This document shows positions 3,469 to 54,436 of a stretch of DNA of 54,436 nt, piece after piece. The notes under the pieces are model-generated. The model searched no databases, was not told the origin of the DNA, and saw only the letters and a program-made list of their open reading frames with translations. Numbering within the stretch: position 1 is the stretch's first letter; every line of letters starts with the position of its first letter. A program made the translations under genes and the position numbers. The stretch is from an uncultured Candidatus Saccharibacteria bacterium (GTDB lineage Bacteria; Patescibacteriota; WWE3; UBA101185; UBA10185). The stretch lies in assembly GCA_964434935.1 (NCBI GenBank), contig CAYSWS010000004.1, positions 1-54,436 of the forward strand, read 5' to 3'.

Positions 3469-3470
3469 GA

Positions 3471-34319: not shown

Positions 34320-35438
34320 ATGAAAGTCGTTGTTGTCATCCCGACCTATAATGAACGAGAAAATATAAAACTGCTCATCCCAGCCTTGTTCGAACAGTTC
34401 AAAAAACTTCCCCAACACGATATGCATATTCTGGTGGTGGACGGTAATTCCCCTGACGGTACGGCCAAGGAGGTGCTTGAATTTCAGGAAAAGAACACCA
34501 ATATACACTTACTTAAAGAGACGAATAAATCCGGGTTGGGTGCGGCCTACATTTATGGTTTTCAGTTTGCTGTAGAAAAGCTTGGAGCCGAAGTTCTGGT
34601 AGAAATGGACGCGGATTTTCAGCATGATCCCAAGGATCTGGTCAAGATGCTTAAGACTTTTGATGAGGGGTACGATTATGTCATCGGTTCCAGATACGTA
34701 AAAGGCGGCAGTATTCCCAAGCAATGGGCGCTATATAGAAAATTATTGAGTTTGGGAGGCAGCCTGTTCACAAAAATTGTGCTTGGGATATACGATATCA
34801 ATGACTTCACCACCGGATTCAAGGTATCCAGAGTGCACGGCTTTGTCGATAAGATAGATCTTAGTGAGGTCAACTCATCTGGTTTTGCCTATAAAATAGA
34901 CCTGCTGTATAAAATGCATAACCTAGGCGCCAGGATGGTTGAAGTGCCGATCAAGTTTGGTCTGCGGGATAGGGGCGATTCCAAAATGGAGAAAGACAAC
35001 ATGCTGGATTCTTTAAGGGTAGTGCTACTGCTGAGGTACCGCAAAAGCCAAAGTTTTTTCAAGTTCATTGTGGTTGGCTTTGCTGGTTTGTTCACGGACA
35101 GTGGACTTTTTACCATATTAAGGTTGACCCCCTTAGCTTCGGCTTATGCCAGTGCCACTTCCGGTTTTATCGCCATGGTCACGACGTTCGCTTTGAATAA
35201 TGTATGGAGTTTTAAAGAACGAAAACTTGAAGGTACTAAGAAAAAGGCCACCAGCTTTATGGTCTACTTTGCCTCTTCTTACATACCAATTATTTTTCGA
35301 TCTTGGCTCATAAGCCTTTCTGTTTCACACTATGGCGATAAGGCCCTTGTAGCTTACAGCGCTTTTTTTGTAGGCATAGTGGTTGGTTTGATCTGGAATT
35401 ATACTGTTTACAGCCGCGTGATTTGGAAAAAGAAATAG
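34320..35438 (+). CDS. GT2 polyprenyl-phosphate sugar (Dpm1-like mannose) synthase fused to a GtrA-like C-terminal membrane domain
   Basis: VVVIPTYNERENI, VVDGNSPDGT and EMDADFQHDP form the GT2 core. The C-terminal ~130 aa form four helices starting FFKFIVVGFAGLFTDSGLF (GtrA signature). Confidence 0.85.
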   Translation: MKVVVVIPTYNERENIKLLIPALFEQFKKLPQHDMHILVVDGNSPDGTAKEVLEFQEKNTNIHLLKETNKSGLGAAYIYGFQFAVEKLGAEVLVEMDADFQHDPKDLVKMLKTFDEGYDYVIGSRYVKGGSIPKQWALYRKLLSLGGSLFTKIVLGIYDINDFTTGFKVSRVHGFVDKIDLSEVNSSGFAYKIDLLYKMHNLGARMVEVPIKFGLRDRGDSKMEKDNMLDSLRVVLLLRYRKSQSFFKFIVVGFAGLFTDSGLFTILRLTPLASAYASATSGFIAMVTTFALNNVWSFKERKLEGTKKKATSFMVYFASSYIPIIFRSWLISLSVSHYGDKALVAYSAFFVGIVVGLIWNYTVYSRVIWKKK

Positions 35439-35469
35439 TTATTTGTAAAATATGGTGTAGTTTAAATAT

Positions 35470-36225
35470 ATGTACGAATTTTCGATCATCATACCGGCTT
35501 ACAATGAAGCGGATAAAATAATTCCTACCCTCACCCAAGTCCTCACTTTTATGAGAAATTACTCCGATTCTTTTGAAGTGATAGCTGTGGATGACGGCAG
35601 TGATGATAATACGGCGGATCTGATAGAGAACTACACACACGAAAATCCGGAAATAAAGATCATGAGAAATTCTCATAAGGGGAAGGGTCCTTCAGTTTGG
35701 TCAGGCATGATGAAAGCTGAAGGCAGATACATTTACATGGCAGATGCTGATCTTTCCACGCCCATTGATGAGTTGAAAAAGTTAATGCCCTGGATCATTG
35801 AACACGGTTTTGATATTGTTATTGCCTCCAGAGAAGGCATAGGCGCCAGCAGGGTCAATGAGCCCCATTATAGGCATTTGATGGGGAGGTTTTTTAATTA
35901 CTTAGTACAAATGGTAGCCTTGCCGGGAATAAAAGATTCGCAATGCGGGTTCAAGCTTTTTACCAAGAGGGCTGCTAAAGAGATCTTTAAGAAGTTGTCG
36001 ATATACGGTAAAGAGGCCAAGGAGCAGAAAAAGGGTTACATGGGCGCCTTTGACGTTGAGGTCCTTTATCTGGCCAGAAAAATGGGTTTCAAGATAAAAG
36101 AAGTTTCCGTGACCTGGACTTATGTGAAAACTAGTAGATTGAACCCCCTGAGCGATTCCATTAAAATGGTAAGGGATGTTCTAAAAGTTCGTGTGAACGA
36201 TATGAGAGGCTTGTACAAAGTATAA
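35470..36225 (+). CDS. GT2 glycosyltransferase (Alg5/polyprenyl-phosphate glucosyltransferase-like)
   Basis: SIIIPAYNEADKI, VDDGSDDNT, ADADLSTP and DSQCGFKLF motifs. Soluble, 251 aa. Confidence 0.85.
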   Translation: MYEFSIIIPAYNEADKIIPTLTQVLTFMRNYSDSFEVIAVDDGSDDNTADLIENYTHENPEIKIMRNSHKGKGPSVWSGMMKAEGRYIYMADADLSTPIDELKKLMPWIIEHGFDIVIASREGIGASRVNEPHYRHLMGRFFNYLVQMVALPGIKDSQCGFKLFTKRAAKEIFKKLSIYGKEAKEQKKGYMGAFDVEVLYLARKMGFKIKEVSVTWTYVKTSRLNPLSDSIKMVRDVLKVRVNDMRGLYKV

Positions 36226-36253
36226 GTTTTCTGCCCGGAAGGAGTTTCCATTA

Positions 36254-37624
36254 ATGAATGTTGCAGTTATAGGTACAGGATATATAGGTTTGGTAGGCGC
36301 AGCCGTGTTTGCCGATTGGGGTCATAAAGTTACCGGCATTGATATCGATGAAAAAAAGATAGCCAAGATCTCATCAGGGGAAATGCCTATTTACGAACCC
36401 GGTTTATCGGAATTAGTGCTGGAAAATATTGAAAACGGCAGATTGGAATTTACCACCTCATTGCCCCAAGGAATAAAAAATGCTGAAGTCGTTTTTATTT
36501 GTGTGGGTACTCCTCAAGGTGAAGACGGAGCGGCTGATCTAACTGCTGTGTGGTCAGTGGCCAAGGAGATAGGCAAGCATCTGGATGGGTATAAAGTGAT
36601 CGTGGTGAAGAGCACGGTGCCCGTTCGCACCAATGAAAGGGTTAAGCAGATCATTTCCGAAAATCTTAAAACAGAAACAGTCTTTGATGTGGTCTCCAAT
36701 CCGGAATTTTTAAGAGAAGGCAGCTCTATCGAGGATATGCAAAACACTGATAGAACTGTGGTGGGATTCGATTCCGAAAGAGCCCTCAATGTTATGAAGG
36801 AGCTCTACGCCGCCGTGGAAGCGCCTCTAGTTGAGTGTGATTACAGGTCTGCAGAAATGATCAAATACGCCTCCAATGCCTTTTTGGCCACCAAGATCTC
36901 GTTTATAAATGAAATAGGACAGCTATGCGAAAGGGCAGGAGCAGATGTGCAAGTGGTAGCTAAGGGTATGGGTTTGGATAGAAGGATCGGACCATATTTC
37001 TTACACGCTGGATTGGGTTATGGAGGAAGCTGCTTTCCTAAGGATGTGGCCGCCCTGTATAAGACCTCAACAGACCAAGCCTACGACTTTAAGCTTCTAA
37101 GAAGTGTCATGGAGGTGAACGGCATGCAGCGTAGCTATTTCATAAAAAAGATCAAATCTTATTTTGGCAACAATTTGTCTGATCGAACCATAGCCTGTTT
37201 GGGCCTATCTTTTAAAAGCAATACGGATGATATCAGAGAGTCAGTTTCCGTAGAGGTGATCAGGTTGTTAAGGGGGCTGGGGGCAAAGATCAGGGTTTAC
37301 GATCCTGAGGCCATGGTCAATTCCAAAAAGGAACTTGGTGAAAGCAACATCAAGTACTGTCTGGACGCCTATGAGGCCATGGAGCAAGCAGATGCCTTGT
37401 GCCTTCTTACGGAGTGGGACCAATTTAGAAAGTTGGATCTTACCAAAGTAAAACAGCTGTTAAAAAGCCCTGTCATCTTTGACGGCAGGAATTTGATGGA
37501 CAGAGATAAAGTGGAGAAAGCTGGTTTTACCTATTTTGCTGTAGGCAAGGTAACTAATGGCCTTATTGAACAGGACGAAAGACCAGTATATGCTATCTTA
37601 AGGAATGGACCAAAAAAGTCATAA
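36254..37624 (+). CDS. ugd: UDP-glucose 6-dehydrogenase
   Basis: Rossmann VAVIGTGYIGLV, catalytic GGSCFPKD, 456 aa, with a GGAAGGAG SD. Confidence 0.93.
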   Translation: MNVAVIGTGYIGLVGAAVFADWGHKVTGIDIDEKKIAKISSGEMPIYEPGLSELVLENIENGRLEFTTSLPQGIKNAEVVFICVGTPQGEDGAADLTAVWSVAKEIGKHLDGYKVIVVKSTVPVRTNERVKQIISENLKTETVFDVVSNPEFLREGSSIEDMQNTDRTVVGFDSERALNVMKELYAAVEAPLVECDYRSAEMIKYASNAFLATKISFINEIGQLCERAGADVQVVAKGMGLDRRIGPYFLHAGLGYGGSCFPKDVAALYKTSTDQAYDFKLLRSVMEVNGMQRSYFIKKIKSYFGNNLSDRTIACLGLSFKSNTDDIRESVSVEVIRLLRGLGAKIRVYDPEAMVNSKKELGESNIKYCLDAYEAMEQADALCLLTEWDQFRKLDLTKVKQLLKSPVIFDGRNLMDRDKVEKAGFTYFAVGKVTNGLIEQDERPVYAILRNGPKKS

Positions 37625-38822
37625 GAAAAAGATTGTTATATTGATACCGGAGTTTCCTGTTCTGACCGAAACTTTTATTCAAAGAGACATTGTTAAGCTT
37701 GTCGAACTGGGGCACTTGGACATCTCGGTGCTGTATTTGAAAAAGGGCACAGGCGAGCTGGACGAAACCCTAAAACCAATCGCGCACAAAATAGGTCTAA
37801 ATATCATCGACGCCTTTTTCTCCCTTAAGTACCTGTTAATAAAAAAAGAGGAAATTAGGAGGATAAACCACATCCTCAAAGGGGACCTCACTAGGAGCAA
37901 TCTGAAGCGTTACTATTTACTGCTTAAAGCTTTAGGTTATGCCAATATCATAAAAAACTTCAAACCGGATGAGTTGCACATTCATTTTTATTCTGACTTT
38001 TCCACCATCGGTATGTTCTCCGCCATTATTTTGGGTGTGCCCTTTAGTATCAATGCTCATGCCCGTGACGTGTTCGAATATCCGCATCTGCCTAAATCCA
38101 AGGCCAATCTAGCTAAGTTTGTCACGGTGTGTAATAAAGCTGCCTATGATAGGTGCGCGGACATTTCTCAAGCCGTTGAGGATAAGATCCATCTGGTACA
38201 TCATGGGGTAGATCCGGAAACAGTATTTCCCGCCGGGCTGGCGGTTACCAAGGCTGATGTACCGATGATATTTATGGGCGGTACCAGGATCACTGAGAAA
38301 AAAGGTATTGAATATATGCTGCAAGCGTCAAAAATATTAAGGGAAAGACGTATCAGGCATAGAGTGGATCTGGTGGGTGTGGGTGAGGGGTATGCCGGTG
38401 TGCTGGAGAGAATAAAGGAGCTGGGTTTGGAAGATGTTTTCTTTTTGCATGGAAAGGGGAAAGGCTTGCCTTTTAGCGAGTTGGCCAAGTTCTACCTGGC
38501 GGCTGATATTTTTGTCCTGCCTTTAATAAAGGCCGAGAGCGGAGATGCAGACGGCATACCAAATGTGATCATAGAGGCTGCCTTGGCCAAGTTACCTATT
38601 ATAACCACTAACGCTGGTAGTGTGAGCGAACTTATAGAAGATAACGTTACGGGTATTGTCGTGCCGCAAAGAAATGCTGAGGTCTTAGCTACCAAGATAG
38701 AAAGCCTTATTTTCGATGATGAGAAAAAGAAAAGATTAGGCGAGTCCGTGTACAACAAAGCTCTGGTTATGTTTGATAGGGATAAGAACGTGGGAGAGCT
38801 AGAAAAACTACTTTTAAGATAA
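37605..38822 (+). CDS. GT4 (Glycos_transf_1) glycosyltransferase
   Basis: EKKGIEY... and DGIPNVIIEAALAKLPIITTNAGSVSELIEDNVTG (E-x7-E). It overlaps ugd by 20 nt. Confidence 0.88.
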   Translation: MDQKSHKKKIVILIPEFPVLTETFIQRDIVKLVELGHLDISVLYLKKGTGELDETLKPIAHKIGLNIIDAFFSLKYLLIKKEEIRRINHILKGDLTRSNLKRYYLLLKALGYANIIKNFKPDELHIHFYSDFSTIGMFSAIILGVPFSINAHARDVFEYPHLPKSKANLAKFVTVCNKAAYDRCADISQAVEDKIHLVHHGVDPETVFPAGLAVTKADVPMIFMGGTRITEKKGIEYMLQASKILRERRIRHRVDLVGVGEGYAGVLERIKELGLEDVFFLHGKGKGLPFSELAKFYLAADIFVLPLIKAESGDADGIPNVIIEAALAKLPIITTNAGSVSELIEDNVTGIVVPQRNAEVLATKIESLIFDDEKKKRLGESVYNKALVMFDRDKNVGELEKLLLR

Positions 38823-38839
38823 TTAGCACTCCAATTTCT

Positions 38840-38848
38840 TGTTATAAT
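38840..38848 (+). promoter_or_regulatory. Consensus extended -10 TGtTATAAT exactly 6 nt upstream of ATG 38855
   Basis: TG at 38840-38841 and TATAAT at 38843-38848, followed by TTCCTT and then ATG. No SD. The geometry places +1 on the A of the start codon. Confidence 0.4.
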
Positions 38849-38854
38849 TTCCTT

Positions 38855-40063
38855 ATGAAAATCGCCGTGTTTACAAAAAAAACCACCTTTCACCAAGGCT
38901 ATGGCGGTTTGGAAACACAAAATAAAGTGCTCTGCGAAGGTTTGGTGCAAAAAGGCCACGATATAACAGTTTTTTCCCCAAAATGGGAACTTTCCCTGGA
39001 AAAAAGTGAAGAAAACGGAGTTAATTACATTTTTGTCGACTGCGTATACCGCATGGGGCCAATTTTTGGTTTTTTTGGTACCAAGCAGAAGAACAACTGG
39101 ATAAACCGCTCTGTTGAGGACTTCGAAGAGATCCACCACAAAGGCAGGTTCGATATTGTGCTGGCCCAAAGTTCAGCCGGATTGGGTGTTATAAAGAAGA
39201 AAGATAAGTTGGAAGTCAAGGCGGTGTCTATCTCCCACGGCTCCATAGTGGGAGAATACAAAACTTTTCTAGCTAGCATGGAGCTCCCCCAAGATCTGCT
39301 ACTGTTGGTAAAAAACACCGGTTTTACCGTCAAGAACTTTTTTCGACGCCAACGTGATTTTGTTCATGGTTCGAACAAAATAATTGCCGTTTCCAATTTT
39401 GTGAAAAGCTCTATCATGGAAGAAACTTTTGTCGATGAAAAAAAGGTTGTGGTCATTCATAACGGTGTTGACCCGCAGGATTACTTTGCCAAAGACGATA
39501 TGGTAAAACGAGGCAAAAAAGCGCTGTACGTGGGACAGATAATCAAGTCTAAGGGTATCAACGACTTAATGGAGATATTTTCCGATGATGACCTTAAAAA
39601 TACAGCCATAGATCTAGCCGGAACGGGAGAGATGCTAGAGACCTGTCAGGCCAAAGTTAAGAGTAACGAGAAGTTTGCAGGCAGAGTGAATTTTTTAGGC
39701 AAGATCAACTATCAGGAACTGAAAAGCAAGTATTACATGAATCCAGACTATGGAGTATTTGTACTACCCACAAAAAGATATGAAGGACTGCCCATGGTGT
39801 TGGTAGAGGCCATGTTCTCGGGCCTGCCCATAGTAGCTTATGATATGGGCGGAGTAGCTGACGCCGTCCATGATGGGAAGAACGGCTTCCTCATTAAGCC
39901 TGGGGATGTTTCGGACTTTAAGAACAAGATAATGGAAATTATCAATAATGATAAACTTAAAGAAGAAATGAGCCAAAATTCGCTGAAGCTGGCTTACGAC
40001 CAGTTCACTTCCCGGCAAATGATAGATAGCTATGAAAAAGTCATGCAGGAGGTCTTGAAATGA
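38855..40063 (+). CDS. GT4 glycosyltransferase
   Basis: KSKGINDL... and YEGLPMVLVEAMFSGLPIVAYDMGGVADAVHDGKNGFL. Confidence 0.88.
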   Translation: MKIAVFTKKTTFHQGYGGLETQNKVLCEGLVQKGHDITVFSPKWELSLEKSEENGVNYIFVDCVYRMGPIFGFFGTKQKNNWINRSVEDFEEIHHKGRFDIVLAQSSAGLGVIKKKDKLEVKAVSISHGSIVGEYKTFLASMELPQDLLLLVKNTGFTVKNFFRRQRDFVHGSNKIIAVSNFVKSSIMEETFVDEKKVVVIHNGVDPQDYFAKDDMVKRGKKALYVGQIIKSKGINDLMEIFSDDDLKNTAIDLAGTGEMLETCQAKVKSNEKFAGRVNFLGKINYQELKSKYYMNPDYGVFVLPTKRYEGLPMVLVEAMFSGLPIVAYDMGGVADAVHDGKNGFLIKPGDVSDFKNKIMEIINNDKLKEEMSQNSLKLAYDQFTSRQMIDSYEKVMQEVLK

Positions 40064-41256
40064 GAATTGCCCGCATGATCTATGAGTGGCCGCCTCCTTG
40101 GCTGGGTCTGGCCCCGGCGCCTTATGAACTTACCAAGTCCCAGGTCAAGCTGGGCCACACTTTTGAGGTGTTTTGCGCCCGGTGGCCTAATTCCGGACCC
40201 ATCGAAGGCTTGAACAAAGTTGATTTTAATTTGGTGCCCAGAGAACCTTTGCCGGGAACCATGCTCCTTACCTCCGCTCCGGCCATGTTCTTCAGATACT
40301 TATCCTGGCGTAGCCATAACAAAACAGACCTCATTCATGCTCATGGGCATTTTGGCATGTGGTTTTACTGGTATCGAAAACTTCTAAAAAAGCATTTTCC
40401 CTGGGTGGAAGAAATGAAAGCACCTTTAGTGGTGCATTTTCACAACACGGTAAAAGGGAGGAGGACCAAGTTGGAAGAGGCGGAGACCGAGATCAAGAAT
40501 ATGTCCAAGTACATCAACTGGCCTCTAGCGGAAGCTTCGGATAGATGGGCAGTGAGAACGGCTGACGCCTGTGTTTTTGTGTCCGAAGAATTAAAACAGG
40601 AGGCCATTAAGTACTACAAAGCGGATCCGCAAAAGTGTTTTGTGGTTGAGACCGGAGTTAACACCGAGACTTTTAAACCTGTTTCCCTTGAAGAAAAAGT
40701 TAAGACCAGACTAGAACTCAAACTTAATCCGGAGGACAAGATAGTGCTTAATGTTGGTGCCATGGTAGAAAGGAAAAACATACACTTCTTGGTCGAAGCC
40801 ATGGCACATCTGCCCGACAACTACAAACTTCTACTCATGGGCGAAGGAGATCCGGACTACGAAGACAGGCTCGACAAAACTATGATCGATAATAAGGTTA
40901 AGCATAAAGTCATCAAGGTGGGTTACACGCCCTACCCGCAGATCCCCATAGCCTATCAGTCAGCCGATGTCTTTGTCCTGCCCTCAAGTTTTGAGGGCAT
41001 ACCCAAAGTAGTCATGGAGTCGCTATCCTGCGGCGTACCTGTGCTGGCCTCAGGTTTCAAATTAAATGAAGATATCCTGGGCTTGGAGTATTTGGAGGAG
41101 ATAGGACCAAGATATATTGCCGGTCGGATCAAAGATATGATCGAAAATCATAGAAGTGTGGACAGGTACAAAGTTATGCATCTTTATTCCTGGGATACAA
41201 AAGCAGCCGAGATGGAAAGAGTATACGAATATGCTAAAAAAAATCACCTCAAATAG
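40060..41256 (+). CDS. GT4 glycosyltransferase
   Basis: ERKNIHFLVEA... and FEGIPKVVMESLSCGVPVLAS. 4-nt overlap with the previous gene. Confidence 0.85.
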   Translation: MRIARMIYEWPPPWLGLAPAPYELTKSQVKLGHTFEVFCARWPNSGPIEGLNKVDFNLVPREPLPGTMLLTSAPAMFFRYLSWRSHNKTDLIHAHGHFGMWFYWYRKLLKKHFPWVEEMKAPLVVHFHNTVKGRRTKLEEAETEIKNMSKYINWPLAEASDRWAVRTADACVFVSEELKQEAIKYYKADPQKCFVVETGVNTETFKPVSLEEKVKTRLELKLNPEDKIVLNVGAMVERKNIHFLVEAMAHLPDNYKLLLMGEGDPDYEDRLDKTMIDNKVKHKVIKVGYTPYPQIPIAYQSADVFVLPSSFEGIPKVVMESLSCGVPVLASGFKLNEDILGLEYLEEIGPRYIAGRIKDMIENHRSVDRYKVMHLYSWDTKAAEMERVYEYAKKNHLK

Positions 41257-42766: not shown

Positions 42767-43467
42767 GCAAAGTAACTAAACTATCTATTGTCATTCCCGT
42801 CTACAACGAAAAAAACACCTTGGAGCCTTTGGTCGAAAAAGTCAAAAAAGTAGATCTGGGTCCGGTAGAAAAGGAGATCATCCTGGTGGATGATGCCTCG
42901 ACCGACGGGTCGGTGGAGCTGCTTGAAGGCTTTCAACAGACCGATCCGTCACTAAAAATATTTTTCCAGGCGGCCAATTCCGGTAAGGGTGCCACTTTGA
43001 GAGAAGGTTTTTCTCATACTACCGGTGACTATGTCATCGTGCAGGATGCGGATCTGGAGTATGAGCCAAAAGATTATAAAAAACTGCTCAGAGCTTTGGA
43101 AGAAGAGAACGTGGACGTGGTCTACGGTTCAAGATTTTCGGGAAATTATGAAGACATGTCCAACCTTCACTATGTGGGAAATAAACTACTGACCTTGATC
43201 TCCAATATTTTATTCGGGGTCATGCTCACGGATATGGAAACTTGCTATAAACTTATGCCTGGAGAATTTATCAGGAGCCTGAAGATAAAGTCTGCCAGGT
43301 TCAACTTTGAGCCGGAGATCACGGCTAAGATCCTCAGGTCAGGCAAAAGGATCAGAGAGGTGCCCATATCTTACAAAGGCAGGTCACATTCCGAAGGCAA
43401 GAAGATCACCTGGCGCGATGGATTGTCAGCGGTAACTACTTTATTGAGGTTCAGGTTCTTCAATTAA
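42763..43467 (+). CDS. GT2 glycosyltransferase (polyprenyl-phosphate sugar synthase-like)
   Basis: LSIVIPVYNEKNTL, VDDASTDGS and QDADLEYEP. Soluble, 234 aa. Confidence 0.85.
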   Translation: MSKVTKLSIVIPVYNEKNTLEPLVEKVKKVDLGPVEKEIILVDDASTDGSVELLEGFQQTDPSLKIFFQAANSGKGATLREGFSHTTGDYVIVQDADLEYEPKDYKKLLRALEEENVDVVYGSRFSGNYEDMSNLHYVGNKLLTLISNILFGVMLTDMETCYKLMPGEFIRSLKIKSARFNFEPEITAKILRSGKRIREVPISYKGRSHSEGKKITWRDGLSAVTTLLRFRFFN

Positions 43468-43469
43468 CT

Positions 43470-47065: not shown

Positions 47066-47958
47066 AGAAATTCTGGCTTAAGAACTACAAACTAATATTA
47101 AAGATCGTGGTGAGTTCCGTCCTGCTGACGATCATTTTTTACAGGATCGATAAAGCCAGTTTAGTAGAAAATATCAAACTACTTGATCTAAGATATGCTC
47201 CCTTGATCATTTTGTTGCTCATACTAAATTACGTTGTGGGAGCCTTTAGATGGAAATCACTGCTCATTCATAACAATTCCCATAAGGTCAGTGTGGGTTA
47301 CCTCATAAACTTATATTTCATTGGTGCTTTTTTTAATAATTTTATGCCCACCACCATTGGTGGAGATGTTTACAAGGTGTTCAAGCTGGGTAAGAAAATA
47401 GACAACACAGTAGACTCTTTCTCCGCCACTTTTATGGAAAGATTTACAGGCGTCATCGCCTTAGTGCTCATTTCGGTAGTGAGCCTGGTCAAGCTGCTGG
47501 GATTTTGGGGCTTGCTCCTTTTATTAGGATTTTTTCTGGGTATAGTCGTAAGTTACGTAGTACTAGGTTTGTTGGCGACAAAATTTAACAAATTGAAAAA
47601 GATCTATGATTCCATCACCTTATACAAGAATCACAAAAGAGTACTGGGTTGGGCTTTTGTAACCTCATTTTCCATACAACTGTTTGCCATCTTCACCCAA
47701 TTTTTTATTTTTAAAGCTTTGGGTATGAACTTGCCTCTGACATATTCTTTGTTTGTATTTCCCGTCATTACCCTGGCCAGTTTTTTTATACCTTCTCTCA
47801 ATGGGGTGGGGGTGCAGGATGCCCTGTACATAAGGTTCTTTCTCAGTGTGGGTATAGCGGAGTCGGCCAGCTTGAGCGCTTCGCTCATATACCATTTGTT
47901 CAGGCTGAGTGTAAGTTTGATCGGAGGATTGCTCTATGCTCTGGGCAAAGATGAATAA
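47062..47958 (+). CDS. UPF0104 / LPG-synthase-TM (flippase-like) membrane protein
   Basis: 298 aa with about 8 TM helices and the motif FFNNFMPTTIGGDVYKV typical of the family. Confidence 0.65.
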   Translation: MKKFWLKNYKLILKIVVSSVLLTIIFYRIDKASLVENIKLLDLRYAPLIILLLILNYVVGAFRWKSLLIHNNSHKVSVGYLINLYFIGAFFNNFMPTTIGGDVYKVFKLGKKIDNTVDSFSATFMERFTGVIALVLISVVSLVKLLGFWGLLLLLGFFLGIVVSYVVLGLLATKFNKLKKIYDSITLYKNHKRVLGWAFVTSFSIQLFAIFTQFFIFKALGMNLPLTYSLFVFPVITLASFFIPSLNGVGVQDALYIRFFLSVGIAESASLSASLIYHLFRLSVSLIGGLLYALGKDE

Positions 47959-49513
47959 GAAAAAGGAACTGATACTAATTTTTGTTTTTATTTTTTTCTT
48001 TCTGCTCACCAGGCTGCCTGGTCTTAGCCACGACACCATAAATCCCGATGCCGTCAATTGGCACTTTAGATCAGAACAATTTGTGGTGGGACTTAAATAC
48101 TTCATTTTCGAAAAGACATACCAGCACTACCATCCCGGCGTAACTCTCATGTGGCTGACCGGCATTCCCATTGAGCTTTTCAAGCAGGTCAGCGGTATAA
48201 CCGTTTATGATCAATTCAGTTTTTATGCTTTCCATTTCTTAGCTAAATATTCACTGGTCATTACCCAGTTAGTACTCAGCGTGCTCATCCTTTTTTGGCT
48301 GACAAAGGTGTTGGAATTCAAAAAGGCCTGGCTGACGGTGTTCATTTTTAGCTTCGAACCGTTTTTTATTGGGAACTCACGGCTTTTTCATATGGACATT
48401 ATTTTTGCCTTATTTTTGTTTGCGGCCTTGCTGACCTCCCATCTTTACCTTAAAGAAGAAAAATGGTACTGGTTGGTCCTGGCAGGTATTTTCTGCGGAT
48501 TTTCGTTTCTCACTAGGAGCTTAGGCGTAGGTGTTTATTTGTTCATTCTCTTTGTGGGAGGGGCATTCTTATATTTTAAGAATAGAAACAAAAAGAAACT
48601 TATAAAATTTGCTGTGCTTTTTTCAACGTGTTTCATAGCCACAACTTTTATTCTTTTTCCGGCCTTGTGGGATAAACCGGCGCAGGTACTGACGAACATA
48701 TTCACCGAAGGCGAACGCATAGGTGTGCGCGACGGTCACAACCAAATAGTGTTTGGCAAAAGCACTACAGCTGCCGGTCCTTTATTTTATCCCTTGGTGC
48801 TGCTGATCAAAGTATCTCCTTTTATGATCATTGGCCTGCTGGCTTACCTGGCGGCACTGGTGGAGATTGTTAAGGGAGGCTTGGTAAAAAAAGAGGTCAT
48901 CGTTCTTAAAAAAGAGAAGATCGTGGGACTGCTTTCGTACATGCTTATCTTTTACGCCGGATATTTTTTGGTCATGCTTTTTCCGGCCAAAAAAATAGAT
49001 AGGTATATGCTGGTGCTATACCCCTATTTCGGTTTGGTCAGTGCTTTTGGCTATCTATATCTATATCAAAAACTAAAGACAAAGTTTCACAGGTCTTTGG
49101 GGCTTCTGGTGCTGCTTTTTGTCGCTTTTGCAGTCATACCGGATTGGCAATTCCATCCCTTTCAATTTACTTACGCCAGCCCATTGGTCGGAGGCCCGGC
49201 TTCCGCCAATAATATAGTGGGGCAAAAGTCATTTGGCGTTGGCATTTTCGAAGTTAAAGACATGTTGGAAACAAAGTACGGATCAGCCACCAAGGTTGGT
49301 TTCATCGACACCAAGCCTATAAAAGCCATCTATCCCAATTCCTTAGTGTCAGATATACGTGTGAACGGTGTCAGCGATTACGATGTCCTGGTGCTGGCCA
49401 TAAACGAGGAGCTGCCCGAAAAAGTACTGAAAAGTGAGGTAAAATTTAGTAAAGATTCGTCCATATATATAAACGGATTAGAGTATTGGCGGTTCTATGT
49501 TAAGGAAAAATAG
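47951..49513 (+). CDS. GT-C fold membrane glycosyltransferase (PMT_2/ArnT-like)
   Basis: First loop HDTINPDAVNWHFRS...YHPGVTLMW, about 11 TM helices, and a C-terminal soluble domain of about 100 aa. It is a paralog of the 50974 gene. An alternative ATG lies at 47936. Confidence 0.7.
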   Translation: MNKKKELILIFVFIFFFLLTRLPGLSHDTINPDAVNWHFRSEQFVVGLKYFIFEKTYQHYHPGVTLMWLTGIPIELFKQVSGITVYDQFSFYAFHFLAKYSLVITQLVLSVLILFWLTKVLEFKKAWLTVFIFSFEPFFIGNSRLFHMDIIFALFLFAALLTSHLYLKEEKWYWLVLAGIFCGFSFLTRSLGVGVYLFILFVGGAFLYFKNRNKKKLIKFAVLFSTCFIATTFILFPALWDKPAQVLTNIFTEGERIGVRDGHNQIVFGKSTTAAGPLFYPLVLLIKVSPFMIIGLLAYLAALVEIVKGGLVKKEVIVLKKEKIVGLLSYMLIFYAGYFLVMLFPAKKIDRYMLVLYPYFGLVSAFGYLYLYQKLKTKFHRSLGLLVLLFVAFAVIPDWQFHPFQFTYASPLVGGPASANNIVGQKSFGVGIFEVKDMLETKYGSATKVGFIDTKPIKAIYPNSLVSDIRVNGVSDYDVLVLAINEELPEKVLKSEVKFSKDSSIYINGLEYWRFYVKEK

Positions 49514-50972
49514 CAACTATCTACCATTGATCATAGCTTTGGCTCTGGCCCTGAGGTTGGTGGGCATTACTCATGGATTCCCCTTCATTTTCCACCCTGA
49601 CGAACCCACTATTGTCCGCTCGGCGCTGGCCATAAGGTTCAACCTTAATCCCGGGCATTTTGACTGGCCTCATTTGTACATCTATCTTAATTACCTTGTT
49701 TATATGTTGTTCGATAATCTGAGAAAGCTGGTCACATTTGCCGGTTACAAGGAATATACCTATTTTTCTTTACCATTGTTCTGGGATGATGAGCTGGTCT
49801 TTTATTTTATCACCAGGTCTTTTTCGGCCATCTTGGGAGCGCTGACCGTGGTACCAGTATATCTCACGGCTAAGAAGATATTTGGTAGGAGAGCCGGCTG
49901 GTTATCAGCCTTGGCCTGGGCTGTGATTCCGTTTCATGTTTGGCACTCTCACTATAGTTTGCCTGATGTACCCATGACCTTTTTCTTATCTTGGGCCTTG
50001 TATTTCATCTCCGGCCTGATATTCAGGAAAAAAATGTCCGACTATTTATGGGCAGGCTTTTTTATTGGTTTAGCAGCGTCGACTAAGTATAATGGTGCCC
50101 TCATGATCGGTGGTTTATTGTTGGCTCATTTTATAAGAGTGCTTTCGGAAAGAAATGAAAAACTTTTGGATTTTGACTCTTGGAAATGTCTATTTTTGTC
50201 GGGGTTTATGTCCATAGTTGGATTCATCTTGGGAACGCCGTACGCCGTGCTTGATCACAACACTTTTATTCGTGCAGACAATGCCAGCGGCGCTTTATGG
50301 CAATTTACAAATGTAGGTAAAGTGAGCTTGTTGGAACATCTGAAGCAGTTTTTTACGGTCATGGCAGTAGACTTACCGGAAAACATGGGTTATACCTTTG
50401 TCATAATTTTTATAGCCGCCTTTTTGTATGTCATATTCAGGGCGGTAAAACACAAAAAGTTTTTTCAAGATAAAGATCTGCTTTTTTTCACTTTACTGGG
50501 GCTTGGCTTGATATTTTATGTTGCCGGCTCAGAGAAAACACGGGCACACTACTTCTTTGTGGCTTATCCGGCAGTAATACTGGGCGGTGTGGGCTTTTTA
50601 GCTCAAAGACTGGAGAATATAAAGAGCAGGGTAAAAAACATCATATGGATCATCGTCTTTTCCTTTCCCCTATATTTTTCTATATTGTCGGCTTATTCTT
50701 TTTACCAAACTGACACCAGGGTTATCTTTTATCGATGGATGCTGGACAATAAAAGAGCCATCAATAAAGTATATGTTTTAGATAATGATCTGGCACCCAT
50801 ATTTGAGAAGTTGAACATGAAAGTGCAGTATGAGGATGCCAGTTTCAGAAATTTCGAACCCGGCGCATATGTGGTTGATACAGGAAATGAAAACAAAGTG
50901 GACATAAAGGAGATCCTGCAGATAAAAGGACCTCTGAACAGGGGGCCGGAAATAGATATCTACGCGCCATAA
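49497..50972 (+). CDS. GT-C fold membrane glycosyltransferase (PMT_2/ArnT-like)
   Basis: First-loop FHPDEPTIVRSA motif and a multi-pass membrane protein of 491 aa. It overlaps the previous gene by 17 nt. Confidence 0.7.
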   Translation: MLRKNSNYLPLIIALALALRLVGITHGFPFIFHPDEPTIVRSALAIRFNLNPGHFDWPHLYIYLNYLVYMLFDNLRKLVTFAGYKEYTYFSLPLFWDDELVFYFITRSFSAILGALTVVPVYLTAKKIFGRRAGWLSALAWAVIPFHVWHSHYSLPDVPMTFFLSWALYFISGLIFRKKMSDYLWAGFFIGLAASTKYNGALMIGGLLLAHFIRVLSERNEKLLDFDSWKCLFLSGFMSIVGFILGTPYAVLDHNTFIRADNASGALWQFTNVGKVSLLEHLKQFFTVMAVDLPENMGYTFVIIFIAAFLYVIFRAVKHKKFFQDKDLLFFTLLGLGLIFYVAGSEKTRAHYFFVAYPAVILGGVGFLAQRLENIKSRVKNIIWIIVFSFPLYFSILSAYSFYQTDTRVIFYRWMLDNKRAINKVYVLDNDLAPIFEKLNMKVQYEDASFRNFEPGAYVVDTGNENKVDIKEILQIKGPLNRGPEIDIYAP

Positions 50973-50973
50973 T

Positions 50974-52605
50974 ATGAAATTTATAAAGAGGTACAAATGG
51001 GAAATATTGATATGTCTGTTTGTGGTCCTGGTCAGGGTGCCGGACCTGGGCCACGATATGTTCAATACCGATGTTTGGAAATGGAAATCCCGCAGTTATG
51101 ACTTTAGTACGGGTGTGTTCACGCTAGATCTTGTTAAAACCATTCAGAAATACCATCCCGGGGTGACACTAATGTGGATAGGCACGGCGGGGATAAAGCT
51201 TTTTAATTTCTACCACAAGATAATTTTAGGCGCACCGGCAGCTGACAACCTTATCCAGAATGTATTTGCTCTGCATGTTGTGCAGAAATCCTTGCTAGTG
51301 ATCGTTATAGGTGTGCTGTTAAGCTTTGTTTTTTACCCTCTGAGGAAAATGTTCGGGCAGAGATATGCCTTTTTGGCTGTTTTATTGATATCATTGGAGC
51401 CTTTTTATGTGGCCCTGACGAGGGTTATGCATCTGGAAGGCTTGATGTCGACTTTTATGTTGGCGTCATTTGTTTGGTTCGTGTACTTTTTGCAAAAGGG
51501 TAAACGCCAGGAACTTGTTCTGGCGGCGTTATTTGCCGCCGGAGCTTTTCTGACCAAGACTTCTTCACTTTTTCTCATGCCCTTTTTTGCTCTTGTGCTG
51601 CTTTTGGAGAATTTTCGTAAACAAGGCGAGTTAAAGCAAAGCCTGGTAATCGGAATAAAAATATATTTAAGATGGCTTGGCTTATCTCTGCTCTTTTTTG
51701 TGGTCTTATGGCCGGCTATGTACACCCACGCCCTCATAGCCTTGCAGACTCTCTATAGAGGCATTTTTACTGTCGGGATCGAAGGAGAGCACTCGCAACT
51801 ATTTCTGGGCAGGTGGGTGGAAGATCCGGGACCGCTCTTTTACCAGGTGGTGCTGGCTTTTAGGACCTCATGGTGGGTGGTTTTGGGCTTGGTAGGGATC
51901 TTTTTTACGCATAAAGGTCTGGAAATGGATGAGAAAAAGAGAGATTTCATTACCTACGCTTTACTGTTTAGTATATTTTATGCTCTAGAGCTGTCGATCC
52001 CTACCAAAAAGCTTGATAGATATATACTGCCGTCTTTAGCGGCTCTGGTTCTGGTGGCGGCTTTCTTTTTCGAACAAGCTTTGCTTTTTATGCAGCAAAA
52101 ACTTAAATATGGCAAAGAGTTGTTTGTGATAATACTGGCAGCGCCAATCATCACGACTCTGGTCATTTTGCATCCTTATTATCTTTCTTACTATTCACCC
52201 TTTACCGGAGGTTTGGACAAAGGCATTTACGCCCTTGAGCCCAAATGGATGATAGGTCAGCAGGAGATCGTGGACTTTTTCGAACAAGAGTTGCAAAAGG
52301 GTGAGGTGGAAAAATATCTGCCCGAAGAAAGTCTGGATTCACAGCTAAATAAACCGTCCATTAAAAATAAGCTCACCGTGGCCTTTCAGGAAAAATATTA
52401 CACACAGATCTGGCCTTTCATCGAAGCCATAGGCGGCCGCGCTACCATCAAAGACATAACCATCCACGCTCAAAACTCCAATTATTTTGTTTACCCGGTT
52501 TATGATGACGATTCCTACCTGGAAAATAGGGTCAAGCTGCAATACGTGACAACTGTAAAACTAAGGGGTGTTGATATGTATCATATTTATAAGAAGGTAG
52601 AGTAA
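50974..52605 (+). CDS. GT-C fold membrane glycosyltransferase (PMT_2/ArnT-like)
   Basis: HDMFNTDVWKWKSRS...YHPGVTLMW, shared with the 47951 gene. Multi-pass, with a C-terminal soluble domain. Confidence 0.7.
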   Translation: MKFIKRYKWEILICLFVVLVRVPDLGHDMFNTDVWKWKSRSYDFSTGVFTLDLVKTIQKYHPGVTLMWIGTAGIKLFNFYHKIILGAPAADNLIQNVFALHVVQKSLLVIVIGVLLSFVFYPLRKMFGQRYAFLAVLLISLEPFYVALTRVMHLEGLMSTFMLASFVWFVYFLQKGKRQELVLAALFAAGAFLTKTSSLFLMPFFALVLLLENFRKQGELKQSLVIGIKIYLRWLGLSLLFFVVLWPAMYTHALIALQTLYRGIFTVGIEGEHSQLFLGRWVEDPGPLFYQVVLAFRTSWWVVLGLVGIFFTHKGLEMDEKKRDFITYALLFSIFYALELSIPTKKLDRYILPSLAALVLVAAFFFEQALLFMQQKLKYGKELFVIILAAPIITTLVILHPYYLSYYSPFTGGLDKGIYALEPKWMIGQQEIVDFFEQELQKGEVEKYLPEESLDSQLNKPSIKNKLTVAFQEKYYTQIWPFIEAIGGRATIKDITIHAQNSNYFVYPVYDDDSYLENRVKLQYVTTVKLRGVDMYHIYKKVE

Positions 52606-52609
52606 CAAA

Positions 52610-53884
52610 ATGAAGGAGCTCATTACCAAAACATTAAAAGACGAAAACATTGTTAATACAGCCCTGGTGACCGCAGGTCTTATGGTCAACAGCGTTTTTA
52701 GTTATCTATTGCAGCTTTTTCTGGCTAGGAATCTTACTGTGGCTGATTTCGGAACTTACAACGCAATTTTATCGCTCTTTGCTATCCTAAGCGTTACTGT
52801 GACCGTTATGTCTGTTTCTTTGGTTAAAGTAGTGGCTGAACTTTCGGGACAAAAAAACCATGGCAAACTTACCAAGCTTTTTTGGAGAGTGAGCGCCTTT
52901 TATGTAATAGTTGGGTTTTTAATAACCTGCACTTTATATCTGGCAAGAAACTACCTGGCGAGTTATATGAATATTGAGCAACCGATACTTTACCTTTACC
53001 TAGGGTTTTACATCTTTGCCGGTCTCATCAGCGTAGGTCCCCAGGCATTTATGCAAGGCTTGATGAAATTTCGCTCCTTTGCTTTTTTTGCTTCTAGCAT
53101 GGGTTTACTGCGGTTAGTTTTTCCTGTGGTTTTTGTCTTGTTAGGGTACCGCGTAGGGGGAGCATATACCGGTATGGCTTTAGGGATGTTTTCCACCTTT
53201 TGGCTGGGTTTGTGGCTTTTAAGAAAGAGCCTTTCCGGCTGGGAGAAGGGAGAGCCGCTAGCTGAATACAAAAGGATCATTATTCTCACCCTACCGGTTT
53301 TGCTACTTAATCTATGCATGATGACTCTTAATAATGTCGATGTCATTCTGGTGAAGAGATATTTTGATGCTGTTACGGCAGGGTATTATGCCGGGGTAGT
53401 TATTCTAGGAAAGATCATTTTATTTGGTGCGGGCTCAATAACCATTGTCATGTTCCCTCAGATCTCTAATTTGGTGGCTGAGGGCAAGGATCATCTGCAG
53501 AGACTCCTGTTTTTCTTTAGGATCCTGTTACTCATTCTCCTTGCTGCCATCCTCTCCTTTAGTTTACTGCCTAATGTTGTGGCCAAGGTATTTTTTGGGC
53601 AGCAGCTGCTCGCCTCTGCACGATACCTCCCATGGTACGCGGTTTTTGTGGCAATTTATGTCCTTATCAACTTTTTAATGATGTATTTTATCGCCATAAA
53701 CAAAACCAGGATCTCTCTCATCCTTGTGCCGGCAGTGATCTCCCAGTTCGTTGTCATAAACTTGTTTCACAGTAGTATATTTTCGATAATTTACACAAAC
53801 ATCTCAATTGCTTTAATAATTCTTGTAACCTTGAGCATTTACTTGTATAAAATATCTAACAACACTGCCCGCCAAAATCTATAA
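52610..53884 (+). CDS. Wzx-type oligosaccharide/polysaccharide flippase
   Basis: 424 aa with about 12 TM helices and the N-terminus ...NSVFSYLLQLFLARNLTVADFG typical of the Polysacc_synt family. Confidence 0.7.
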   Translation: MKELITKTLKDENIVNTALVTAGLMVNSVFSYLLQLFLARNLTVADFGTYNAILSLFAILSVTVTVMSVSLVKVVAELSGQKNHGKLTKLFWRVSAFYVIVGFLITCTLYLARNYLASYMNIEQPILYLYLGFYIFAGLISVGPQAFMQGLMKFRSFAFFASSMGLLRLVFPVVFVLLGYRVGGAYTGMALGMFSTFWLGLWLLRKSLSGWEKGEPLAEYKRIIILTLPVLLLNLCMMTLNNVDVILVKRYFDAVTAGYYAGVVILGKIILFGAGSITIVMFPQISNLVAEGKDHLQRLLFFFRILLLILLAAILSFSLLPNVVAKVFFGQQLLASARYLPWYAVFVAIYVLINFLMMYFIAINKTRISLILVPAVISQFVVINLFHSSIFSIIYTNISIALIILVTLSIYLYKISNNTARQNL

Positions 53885-53885
53885 C

Positions 53886-54436
53886 ATGCTGGTTTCCATC
53901 ATAATACCTGCTTACAAACAGGAAAAAACTATAAAACAAGATATATTGAATATCTACGAATCCATGGCCAAGACACGCTGGGATTTTGAGGTCATCGTCA
54001 TAGATGACGGCTCTCCGGATAAGACTTATCGAGAGGCTAAGAAGATCAAAAAAGAAAATATAAAAGTCCACCGTTACAAAAAAAACCTTGGTAAGGGATT
54101 TGCTGTGAAATACGGCATGGCCAGAGCCGTGGGAGATTTTATCGCTTTCATCGACTCAGGTATGGAGATTAATCCTAACAACATTTCCATGATCCTCGAA
54201 CACATGATCTGGTACGATTCGGATATTATTGTGGGCAGCAAGAGGCACTCAGCTTCCAAAGTGAACTATTCTTTCATGAGGCGGGTGTATAGCGAAGGCT
54301 ATTTTAGATTAGTGCAGGTGTTGTTTGGCTTGCGCGTTCGTGATACGCAGACCGGTCTGAAAGTATTTAAGCGAAAGGTGCTGGAAAAGGTCCTGCCCAG
54401 ATTGCTGGTCAAGGCATTTGCTTTTGACATTGAGCT
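53886..54436 (+). CDS. GT2 glycosyltransferase, 3' end cut by window edge
   Basis: My own translation from ATG 53886 gives MLVSIIIPAYKQEKTI...VIVIDDGSPDKT...IAFIDSGMEI...RDTQTGLKVF, open to the last base. It is absent from the ORF track because no stop is reached. Confidence 0.85.
   Translation, partial: MLVSIIIPAYKQEKTIKQDILNIYESMAKTRWDFEVIVIDDGSPDKTYREAKKIKKENIKVHRYKKNLGKGFAVKYGMARAVGDFIAFIDSGMEINPNNISMILEHMIWYDSDIIVGSKRHSASKVNYSFMRRVYSEGYFRLVQVLFGLRVRDTQTGLKVFKRKVLEKVLPRLLVKAFAFDIE

Follow-up and report, generated by a model that had tools for sequence, protein, structure and literature searches.

The window analysed here, 54,436 nucleotides (nt) of contig CAYSWS010000004.1 from an uncultured bacterium of the WWE3 (Katanobacteria) lineage, ends in a run of glycosyltransferase and flippase genes that we find to belong to a single operon conserved across WWE3. 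Sixteen co-directional open reading frames (g1 to g16) occupy positions 34320-54436 of the plus strand, separated by gaps of at most 32 nt or else overlapping by 4-26 nt, much as the original prediction had described them, and Pfam returned for every one of the 16 the family that had been named for it (Table 1). The conserved block is larger than this 16-gene stretch and in full comprises 22 genes over ~24.6 kb. It starts with the gene for a CAP-domain protein (33076), followed by the gene for a membrane protein of 85 amino acids (aa) and then by g1, and past the window edge it takes in the rest of g16, a further GT2 gene (g17) and a ferredoxin gene before closing with the gene for an HpnJ-like B12 radical-SAM enzyme. 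The continuation past the edge, which had also been foreseen, is supplied by a metagenome contig (L087) that is 99.78% identical to the window's last 1802 nt and holds the remainder of g16, g17 (339 aa), the ferredoxin (85 aa) and 385 N-terminal residues of the radical-SAM enzyme. The ferredoxin and radical-SAM genes lie ~1.6-2.7 kb past the window edge (L087, reverse strand) and are found also at L002:16221-18993. In total, the locus encodes five GT2 enzymes (g1, g2, g8, g16 and g17) and five proteins of the GT-C fold (g7, g9, g12, g13 and g14).

Table 1. Genes of the conserved block that lie in the window, with predicted products and the profile or other evidence for each.
Gene	Position	Strand	Predicted product	Evidence
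CAP gene	33076..34053	+	CAP/YkwD-domain protein, membrane-anchored, 325 aa	Pfam CAP 78 bits; NCBIfam YkwD domain 101 bits
85-aa gene	34050..34307	+	membrane protein, ~3 transmembrane helices	hydropathy; conserved motif WGxVHHxxExRL...LEY
g1	34320..35438	+	putative polyprenyl-phosphate hexose synthase of archaeal DPMS type	Pfam GT2 96 bits and GtrA_DPMS_TM 54 bits
g2	35470..36225	+	soluble Dpm1/ArnC/GtrB-like GT2, 251 aa, putative second polyprenyl-phosphate-sugar synthase	Pfam GT2 109 bits
g3	36254..37624	+	UDP-glucose 6-dehydrogenase (Ugd)	all three Pfam UDPG_MGDP_dh domains
g4	37605..38822	+	cytoplasmic GT4 (GT-B fold)	Pfam Glycos_transf_1 94 bits (and Glyco_transf_4); no transmembrane helix
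g5	38855..40063	+	cytoplasmic GT4	Pfam Glycos_transf_1 105 bits and Glyco_transf_4 73 bits
g6	40060..41256	+	cytoplasmic GT4	Pfam Glycos_transf_1 and Glyco_transf_4
g7	41231..42766	+	GT-C glycosyltransferase, 511 aa, multi-pass	Pfam PMT_2 34.6 bits (weak)
g8	42763..43467	+	soluble ArnC/DPMS/AglJ-like GT2, 234 aa, putative donor synthase for g7	Pfam GT2 126 bits
g9	43470..45605	+	DUF2079 protein, 711 aa, GT-C-fold membrane domain and external C-terminal region	Pfam DUF2079 123 bits
g10	45602..47065	+	MOP-superfamily (Wzx-like) flippase	Pfam Polysacc_synt_3 64 bits, Polysacc_synt 53 bits
g11	47062..47958	+	UPF0104/MprF-flippase-like membrane protein	Pfam LPG_synthase_TM 146 bits
g12	47936..49513	+	GT-C glycosyltransferase, 525 aa, old paralog of g14	Pfam PMT_2/PMT
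g13	49497..50972	+	GT-C glycosyltransferase, 491 aa	Pfam PMT_2 65 bits, PMT 54 bits
g14	50974..52605	+	GT-C glycosyltransferase, 543 aa	Pfam PMT_2 41 bits
g15	52610..53884	+	second MOP-superfamily (Wzx-like) flippase	Pfam Polysacc_synt 48 bits, Polysacc_synt_3 36 bits
g16	53886..54436	+	GT2, 267 aa when complete, cut by window edge	Pfam GT2 98 bits

The CAP gene starts 9 nt past adk, the last gene of an rpoBC/ribosomal-protein/secY array, and its stop overlaps the start of the 85-aa gene, so that the glycan operon lies directly downstream of the ribosomal genes on the same strand (window 10347-34320) and read-through from one into the other seems possible. The usual followers of adk (map, infA, rpsM, rpsK and rpoA) are not at this position in the window. 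Promoter-like and terminator-like sites inside the block do not rise above shuffled controls, and on this ground we rejected a locus split by internal promoters or terminators; this result and the tight packing and overlap of the genes both count towards an operon. GC content is even across the window, and no Rfam or tRNA match was found anywhere in it.

A scan of species-representative genomes yielded 80 loci, including one in the complete genome CP006914.1, of which ~70 can be assessed for gene order; a contig scan that used only g15 brought up no relatives. The arrangement g4-g5-g6-g7-g8-g9-g10-g11-g12-g13-g14-g15-GT2-GT2-(ferredoxin)-B12 radical SAM is kept in most of the ~70 WWE3/Patescibacteria loci, whose proteins are 35-84% identical to those of the window, and homologs of g13 and g9 come almost exclusively from WWE3 and Patescibacteria. 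The CAP gene, the 85-aa gene and g1-g3 are likewise conserved upstream in the g9-anchored loci L084 and L085. The genes g9, g10, g12, g13 and g14 are present almost always (g10 in 67/67 assessable loci), and g11 is absent from 16/70; g5 orthologs were found in 46 loci. The genes g17 and the radical-SAM gene always occur together (41/41 loci). Variable content, in the form of extra GT2 and GT4 genes, methyltransferases and epimerases, is found only past the radical-SAM gene. A gene order this constant throughout a phylum-level lineage suggests a component of the basic envelope and argues against a variable O-antigen, capsule or antigen locus, and the gene-content variability typical of Wzx/Wzy loci is not seen among these species-level genomes.

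In 50 loci g7 occurs with g8, in 8 loci neither is found, and no locus has one without the other, as would be expected of a donor synthase and its transferase. This strict pairing also bears on a different reading of the locus, in which it would consist of independent modules like those of the Gtr, Gac or Arn systems, each made up of a GT2 synthase, a flippase and a GT-C enzyme and each decorating a polymer synthesised elsewhere (for instance peptidoglycan or a polymer of the teichoic type) with one side-chain sugar. The pair is lost or gained as a unit, loci without it often carry another PMT_2 gene after g9, the five GT2 enzymes are matched by five GT-C enzymes, and three kinds of flippase-like protein are present. 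However, g9, g10, g12, g13 and g14 are nearly always retained in fixed order, the set of GT4, Ugd and MOP proteins implies that a lipid-linked oligosaccharide or glycolipid is also built here, and no backbone-polymer genes are known for these organisms. We regard a collection of separate modules as unlikely.

Several further genes accompany the block in subsets of genomes. The radical-SAM enzyme is most similar to HpnJ (170 bits, a match below cut-off), which catalyses the ring contraction of glucosamine in hopanoid lipids; this match and the constant company of g17 suggest that the HpnJ-like enzyme may make an unusual modification of a lipid-linked sugar. Between the ferredoxin and radical-SAM genes, 11 genomes encode a ~320-aa protein that has no Pfam match and is absent from the window's strain (L072:16455-17423 and ten others). 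A membrane protein of 685-742 aa with ~10-12 transmembrane helices is encoded on the opposite strand just past the radical-SAM gene at L002:18990-21047 (-), L003:18287-20410 (-) and L018:18008-20236 (-); the L018 version matches PMT_2 and may represent a sixth GT-C enzyme, and those of L002 and L003 have no family match. In six genomes (L065:6600-8252, minus strand, and five others) a 550-aa ELP3-like radical-SAM and GNAT acetyltransferase gene, followed by a 240-aa methyltransferase gene, stands between the g10 and g11 orthologs. More distant genomes (~30% identity; L079:1-21293 and L078) have a cluster of the same ingredients in another order, with genes resembling g1, g2 and g3, others for GT4 enzymes and Wzx, six or more PMT_2 genes and a weak match to DUF2079, which indicates that GT-C-rich loci extend beyond the syntenic WWE3 group.

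The assignment of five proteins to the GT-C fold rests on predicted structures for g13 and g9, on profile links to g13 for g7 and g12 and on a BLAST match to g12 for g14. Hydropathy gives 7-12 hydrophobic segments in each of the five. Single-sequence searches of the PDB with these proteins gave nothing useful, and relatives of known structure were reached only through ortholog profiles or predicted structures. A profile of g13 and 37 homologs matched yeast ScPmt1 with an E-value of 5.8e-13 and, weakly, AglB. The AlphaFold2 model of g13 (predicted local distance difference score, pLDDT, 88; predicted template-modelling score, pTM, 0.88) has ~13 transmembrane helices and a ~70-aa C-terminal domain, and its top 41 Foldseek matches in the PDB are all of the GT-C fold, namely 40 glycosyltransferases and the glycosylphosphatidylinositol-transamidase subunit PIG-U (E 1e-7 to 0.24). 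Two-way template-modelling (TM) scores are 0.57/0.58 for ALG12, 0.55/0.50 for ArnT, 0.54/0.54 for Pmt4 and 0.51/0.47 for ALG9, so that the best matches (ALG12, Pmt4 and ArnT) are enzymes of similar size that use polyprenyl-phosphate-monosaccharides. Oligosaccharyltransferases match g13 solely through the transmembrane core (target-normalised TM-scores 0.29-0.43), and AftA and EmbA/B are only low-ranking fold matches. Structures of the major facilitator superfamily and of G-protein-coupled receptors match only at E > 0.2 and TM-scores of ~0.1, and a transporter identity for the multi-pass proteins was rejected accordingly.

The AlphaFold2 model of g9 (pLDDT 85, pTM 0.84) has a helical membrane core, and its top 20 Foldseek matches are again all GT-C proteins (STT3A, AglB, DPY19, PglB and ArnT; E 4e-6 to 7e-4). 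Its C-terminal extracytoplasmic region of ~265 aa combines an alpha/beta part with a beta-sandwich that resembles NPC2, complement macroglobulin domains and the carbohydrate-binding domain of Wzt, making g9 the sole GT-C protein of the locus with the size and domain layout of an oligosaccharyltransferase or an Emb protein. No gene of the locus matches the STT3/PglB/AglB family (PF02516) at E < 0.01, and the WWD motif is not found among the invariant columns of g9, whose C-terminal domain is a beta-sandwich. By sequence, the DUF2079 profile has no match in the PDB and aligns to the g13 profile with a probability of only 8% in hhalign. The ortholog profiles of g7 and g12, by comparison, align to that of g13 with probabilities of 96.7% (E 3.8e-10, 465 columns) and 93.8% (E 1.7e-7), and g14 is 30% identical to g12 (BLAST E 2e-35). 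Judged by these scores, the five are old, mutually divergent families of barely detectable kinship rather than recent copies of one another. The original prediction had counted four ArnT/PMT_2-like GT-C proteins; all four are of this kind, and the count rises to five since the DUF2079 protein shares the fold.

The ortholog alignments contain invariant acidic residues shortly after the first transmembrane helix in all five families, a hallmark of the GT-C active site as found in active GT-C enzymes. In g13 these form a PMT-like H-P-D-E motif (H33, D35 and E36 invariant, P34 in at least 90% of sequences); the corresponding invariant positions are D40 and D45 in g9, E31-W-G-D34 in g7, N36-P-D38 in g12 and D28, T32 and D33 in g14. 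By their position after the first helix, these residues are predicted to sit in the first extracytoplasmic loop. That the five enzymes would use polyprenyl-phosphate-sugar donors on the outer face of the membrane is suggested by one line of evidence, the co-located genes for GT2 enzymes resembling donor synthases.

Three of these GT2 enzymes, g1, g2 and g8, appear from their nearest solved relatives to be of the lipid-phosphate-sugar synthase type. In g1, a GT2 catalytic domain is fused to a four-helix GtrA-like C-terminal transmembrane domain, and the protein matches the Pyrococcus furiosus dolichol-phosphate-mannose (Dol-P-Man) synthase (PDB 5mlz) over its full length including the transmembrane domain (E 8.7e-44, residues 1-369 against 23-372). 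For g2 the best PDB match is the dolichol-phosphate-mannose synthase DPMS (E 9.6e-16), followed by ArnC and GtrB, and for g8 the matches are ArnC (4.9e-18), DPMS (8.5e-15) and GtrB (2.6e-12). Among NCBIfam models the GT2 enzymes are closest to PgfS, AglJ, PpgS and ArnC, g8 reaching 117 bits against AglJ, which like all of these matches is below the curated cut-off. With a median identity of 68%, g8 is the most conserved glycosyltransferase of the operon, exceeded only by the radical-SAM gene (72%). No transmembrane helix is predicted in g2, g8 or g16, a property shared by human DPM1 and by the catalytic domain of Ppm1. The DxD motif is DAD in g1, g2 and g8 and DDD in g17, which differs from the others in matching MftF, EpsD and AglG. 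The case of g16 is different; its matches to PgfS, ArnC and PpgS are weak, and only weakly do they suggest a polyprenyl-phosphate-sugar synthase. Thus, of the four enzymes of this type originally proposed, three stand by their PDB relatives, and g16, with weak profile matches and no DxD motif, is doubtful.

The other cytoplasmic enzymes are Ugd (g3) and the three GT4 proteins. Ugd scores 562 bits against NCBIfam TuaD and 396 bits against AglM, and 479 bits, above cut-off, against the nucleotide-sugar dehydrogenase subfamily. A full-length EpsE-like match (123 bits) is obtained for g4, below cut-off, and the top matches of g6, all likewise below their cut-offs, are spread over TuaC (83 bits), the MSMEG_0565 and TIGR04157 families, the glycogen synthase glgA_Coryne, MshA, N-acetylglucosamine-phosphatidylglycerol synthase and the lipoteichoic acid anchor enzymes IagA/BgsA; the GT2 genes score 40-51 bits against TuaG. 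Among the membrane proteins, g10 and g15 exceed the Pfam thresholds for Polysacc_synt(_3) and are assigned to the Wzx-like (MOP) flippases, and g11 matches the TIGR00374 flippase-like domain above cut-off (72 bits) and HpnL weakly. Exact-sequence look-ups for g15 and for the window's g9 returned no database record.

At the head of the operon, the CAP protein consists of an N-terminal transmembrane helix, an extracytoplasmic CAP domain, a variable linker rich in Pro, Glu, Ser and Thr and a conserved C-terminal transmembrane bundle, as defined by the ortholog alignment, and in L084 and L085 its gene likewise stands directly upstream of the g1 ortholog. The protein, anchored in the membrane at both ends, has a weak likeness to the divisome-associated lipoprotein DalA (54 bits), and its role might be that of glycan acceptor or of lipid binder, if it is connected with the glycan at all. 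Orthologs of the 85-aa protein (85-88 aa) occupy the same position in L084 and L085, and its sole family match is a weak one to DUF5656 (E 0.0012).

The CAP protein and the likeness of g13 to Pmt1 raise the possibility that the locus serves mainly protein O-glycosylation, with PMT-like GT-C enzymes placing sugars from polyprenyl phosphate on Ser or Thr of secreted proteins, among them perhaps pilins, an S-layer protein or the CAP protein itself. Precedents are the actinobacterial Ppm1/Pmt system and Pgf of Streptococcus mutans. The g13 family is closest in sequence to yeast Pmt1, it has a PMT-like D-E pair in the first loop and carries the database label GT39, PgfS is the top NCBIfam match of g1, g2 and g16, and the conserved protein at the operon head has a variable external linker rich in Pro, Ser, Thr and Glu. 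On the other hand, five GT-C enzymes, three GT4 enzymes, Ugd and two MOP flippases far exceed the known needs of PMT or Pgf systems, the C-terminal beta-sandwich of the DUF2079 protein resembles carbohydrate-binding modules and so argues for a glycan acceptor, and the PgfS and PMT matches are well under their curated cut-offs. As the principal role of the operon, protein O-glycosylation thus seems to us a minority prospect.

We found no initiating transferase of the Bac_transf or WecA type, no Wzy, Wzz or WaaL and no STT3-type transferase in the window, in the 2.7 kb beyond it in the near-identical strain or in the conserved part of the ~70 loci. This absence had been noted from the window before, as had the presence of a single PNPT-family enzyme, which at 4419-5444 beside a MurF-like ligase is indeed MraY; it scores 178 bits as MraY and 37 as WecA, and we rejected it as a hidden WecA-type initiator. 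Adjoining mraY and the MurF-like gene on the minus strand (window 2902-4349) are genes for a sigma factor of the extracytoplasmic function type (190 aa) and then for a 292-aa protein that has no family match and is possibly its anti-sigma factor. None of the related loci contains a MraY/WecA homolog. Pfam models of Wzy_C, O-antigen polymerase and Wzz have no match in the conserved block or its 10-kb flanks, with the proviso that a very divergent Wzy can escape profiles; the multi-pass proteins of the conserved block are all GT-C, MOP or UPF0104 proteins, except for the 85-aa protein, and a few in the variable flanks have no family.

A signature scan for an initiating phosphoglycosyl transferase in the window and 85 loci was positive in L027 alone. 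Here the orthologs of g4 and g5 are separated by a PglC-like gene of opposite orientation (L027:874-1476, minus strand; 200 aa, PF02397, E 3e-58), and a copy that is 72% identical is likewise found among the GT4 genes of a second metagenome-assembled genome (L086:2698-3300). Only three close relatives of this gene were found, ahead of Firmicutes enzymes at ~50% identity, a pattern that points to sporadic acquisition; as a conserved WWE3 initiator it was rejected on the same evidence. It could nevertheless be cited, together with the two Wzx-like genes, the GT4 and GT2 enzymes, Ugd and the variable regions rich in GT2, GT4, methyltransferase and epimerase genes past the block, in favour of an ordinary Wzx/Wzy locus for O-antigen, capsule or exopolysaccharide, whose initiator, polymerase and ligase would be encoded elsewhere in the genome. 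We consider this very improbable. Variable surface-antigen loci do not keep one gene order throughout a phylum-level lineage, as this locus does, the block and its 10-kb flanks lack Wzy, Wzz and WaaL, the PglC-like gene looks like a sporadic acquisition, and five GT-C enzymes would be left without a role. Moreover, the absence of an initiator need not be an anomaly, for by analogy with known systems an AglJ/Dpm1-like GT2 enzyme acting on polyprenyl phosphate or a GT4 enzyme acting on a membrane glycerolipid can provide the start. Initiation without a phosphoglycosyl transferase is established for the Agl pathway of Haloferax, where AglJ acts on polyprenyl phosphate, and for the lipomannans of Micrococcus, Corynebacterium and Mycobacterium, where a GT4 enzyme acts on a glycerolipid.

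The reading that we favour, at a probability of roughly two in three, is that the operon assembles an envelope glycoconjugate in two compartments. The families and folds, the order and conservation of the genes and the joint inheritance of g7 and g8 are observed; from them we infer the substrates, the order of steps, the flippase assignments and the acceptor as follows. Inside the cell, Ugd would supply UDP-glucuronic acid, and the three GT4 enzymes together with the membrane-tethered GT2 enzyme g17 would build a short lipid-linked primer. This primer could be started without a phosphoglycosyl transferase, either by an AglJ/Dpm1-like GT2 enzyme placing a hexose on polyprenyl phosphate or by a GT4 enzyme acting on a membrane glycerolipid. 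Also inside, up to four Dpm1/ArnC/GtrB-like GT2 enzymes (g1, g2, g8 and g16) would load single sugars on polyprenyl phosphate. The two Wzx-like MOP proteins (g10 and g15) would translocate the primer, and the UPF0104 protein (g11) and the GtrA-like domain of g1 are candidates for flipping the polyprenyl-phosphate-sugars. Outside, the five GT-C enzymes would add sugars from these lipid donors, with g8 and g7 as one putative pair of donor synthase and transferase, and the DUF2079 protein g9, with its large external domain, as the best candidate for an enzyme that acts on a polymer or transfers a block. The product is probably an acidic, glucuronic-acid-containing lipoglycan or a glycan linked to the wall or to protein, and part of the basic WWE3 envelope; its acidic character is suggested by Ugd and the matches to TuaD, TuaC and TuaG.

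Several points weigh against this scheme. The NCBIfam matches to named enzymes are all below the curated cut-offs, and sugar identities and acceptors are thus not fixed by profiles. Enzymes like these GT2 proteins can act on lipid-linked oligosaccharides instead of making donors, and g16 and its ortholog carry D-S-G in place of DxD, so that g16 may be a variant or non-catalytic GT2. The PglC-like gene within the GT4 group of two to three related genomes, a small subclade, is a hint that an ordinary diphosphate-linked pathway, with its initiator elsewhere, may make up the cytoplasmic branch, and the genes could also be several separate decoration modules rather than one pathway.

The two-compartment scheme resembles several known systems in its logic. 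In the synthesis of actinobacterial lipomannan and lipoarabinomannan and of LM-B in Corynebacterium, no phosphoglycosyl transferase takes part: GT4 enzymes (PimA/PimB/MgtA) prime a membrane lipid, the GT2 enzyme Ppm1 makes the donor and GT-C enzymes (PimE/MptA-C/Emb/Aft) act thereafter; the lipid of Corynebacterium LM-B is a glucuronic-acid diacylglycerol. The WWE3 locus would share with these pathways the priming by GT4 enzymes, the Dpm1-like GT2 donor synthase, the extension outside by several GT-C enzymes and a conserved, lineage-defining product, and a glucuronic-acid lipid like that of LM-B would fit its Ugd. Orthology, however, is not apparent. The WWE3 GT-C enzymes are of the PMT_2 and DUF2079 types rather than GT87 or Emb/Aft, no GT87 or arabinosyltransferase Pfam match was found in the locus, and the GT4 enzymes match many GT4 models weakly, including MshA and lipoteichoic acid anchor enzymes. 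In addition, the WWE3 genes are in one operon rather than scattered, MOP flippases are present and there are up to four donor synthases.

In the Agl pathway of Haloferax volcanii (AglJ, AglG/I/E, AglM, AglR, AglS, AglD and AglB), a Dpm1-like GT2 enzyme starts the glycan on polyprenyl monophosphate, glucuronic acid comes from a UDP-glucose dehydrogenase, flipping involves a Wzx-like protein and a GT-C enzyme adds the last sugar outside from Dol-P-Man. Here the likeness extends to the NCBIfam matches of g8 to AglJ, of g3 to AglM and of g17 to AglG (59 bits), all of them far below the equivalog cut-offs. By contrast, the WWE3 locus has no STT3/AglB, its cytoplasmic steps are dominated by GT4 rather than GT2 enzymes and it has five GT-C enzymes where Agl has one. 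The assembly of N-glycans in the endoplasmic reticulum, with Alg enzymes of the GT-B fold, flipping and then ALG3/9/12/6/8/10, follows the same two-compartment logic, and the g13 model fits ALG12 and ALG9 as well as any bacterial GT-C protein, but the WWE3 locus lacks an Alg7-type initiator, STT3 and any sequence-level orthology. The earlier comparison of the locus with N-glycan and lipomannan/lipoarabinomannan assembly rather than with Wzx/Wzy loci is thus supported for the two-compartment arrangement, as a likeness of logic and not as orthology.

Three-component systems such as GtrA/GtrB/GtrC, ArnC/ArnE-F/ArnT, GacI/J/K/L, CsbB/GtcA/YfhO and S. mutans PgfS/PgfM1/PgfM2 combine a GT2 synthase and a GT-C enzyme with a flippase of GtrA type or, in Gac, of Wzx type. 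Among solved structures g2 and g8 are closest to ArnC, DPMS and GtrB, and the inheritance of g7 and g8 as a pair is a further likeness. Whereas the known systems add one sugar to a polymer from other loci, the WWE3 locus joins several such modules with the GT4, Ugd and MOP set in one operon. Finally, the teichuronic acid operon tuaABCDEFGH of Bacillus subtilis, which has an initiator (TuaA), a polymerase (TuaE) and a chain-length regulator (TuaF) and no GT-C enzyme, resembles the WWE3 locus in its Ugd, GT4 and GT2 enzymes, with the TuaD, TuaC and TuaG scores given above, and in its Wzx-like flippase. Counterparts of TuaA, TuaE and TuaF are lacking in the WWE3 locus, and of the two loci it is the one with GT-C enzymes.

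Taken jointly, these features would admit a bolder version of the two-compartment scheme, which as a whole we regard as speculative and less probable than either the separate modules or protein O-glycosylation. In it, the main envelope glycan of WWE3 would be free of phosphoglycosyl transferases and started on polyprenyl monophosphate, in the manner of haloarchaea and the endoplasmic reticulum, or on a glycerolipid scavenged from a host; DUF2079 proteins would form a new GT-C class and would use their carbohydrate-binding-like external domain to transfer the flipped block or to polymerise it; and the HpnJ-like enzyme would reshape a lipid-linked sugar, for example by ring contraction.

We know of no cultured member of WWE3/Katanobacteria and of no recognisable lipid synthesis in this lineage. 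WWE3 genomes are ~0.9 Mb in size, and an operon of ~24.6 kb amounts to roughly 2.8% of the complete genome CP006914.1 (878,109 bp). Kantor et al. (2013; PMC3812714) reported that glycosyltransferases are abundant in a WWE3 genome, suggested polysaccharides, glycoproteins or a glycosylated S-layer, and did not find a complete peptidoglycan pathway; they gave no description of this operon. In the full-text literature we found no paper that mentions DUF2079 and none linking Patescibacteria with GT-C enzymes, and a search for Patescibacteria and mannosyltransferase returned nothing relevant. None of the outcomes named beforehand as fatal to the original prediction came about: the multi-pass proteins are GT-C enzymes, no canonical phosphoglycosyl transferase with Wzy or WaaL lies just downstream, and no characterised version of the cluster came to light. 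The general mechanism, in which GT-C enzymes use polyprenyl-phosphate-sugars, is already well known; the system itself is new, as are its product and its five orphan GT-C families, and its value lies in these rather than in a new principle. As a defined and transferable gene set, the operon would allow DUF2079 and several orphan PMT_2 families to be assigned functions, and it offers a test of whether bacteria build complex glycans in the haloarchaeal or endoplasmic-reticulum way, without a phosphoglycosyl transferase. It could thereby reveal the surface make-up of ultra-small and probably host-attached bacteria.

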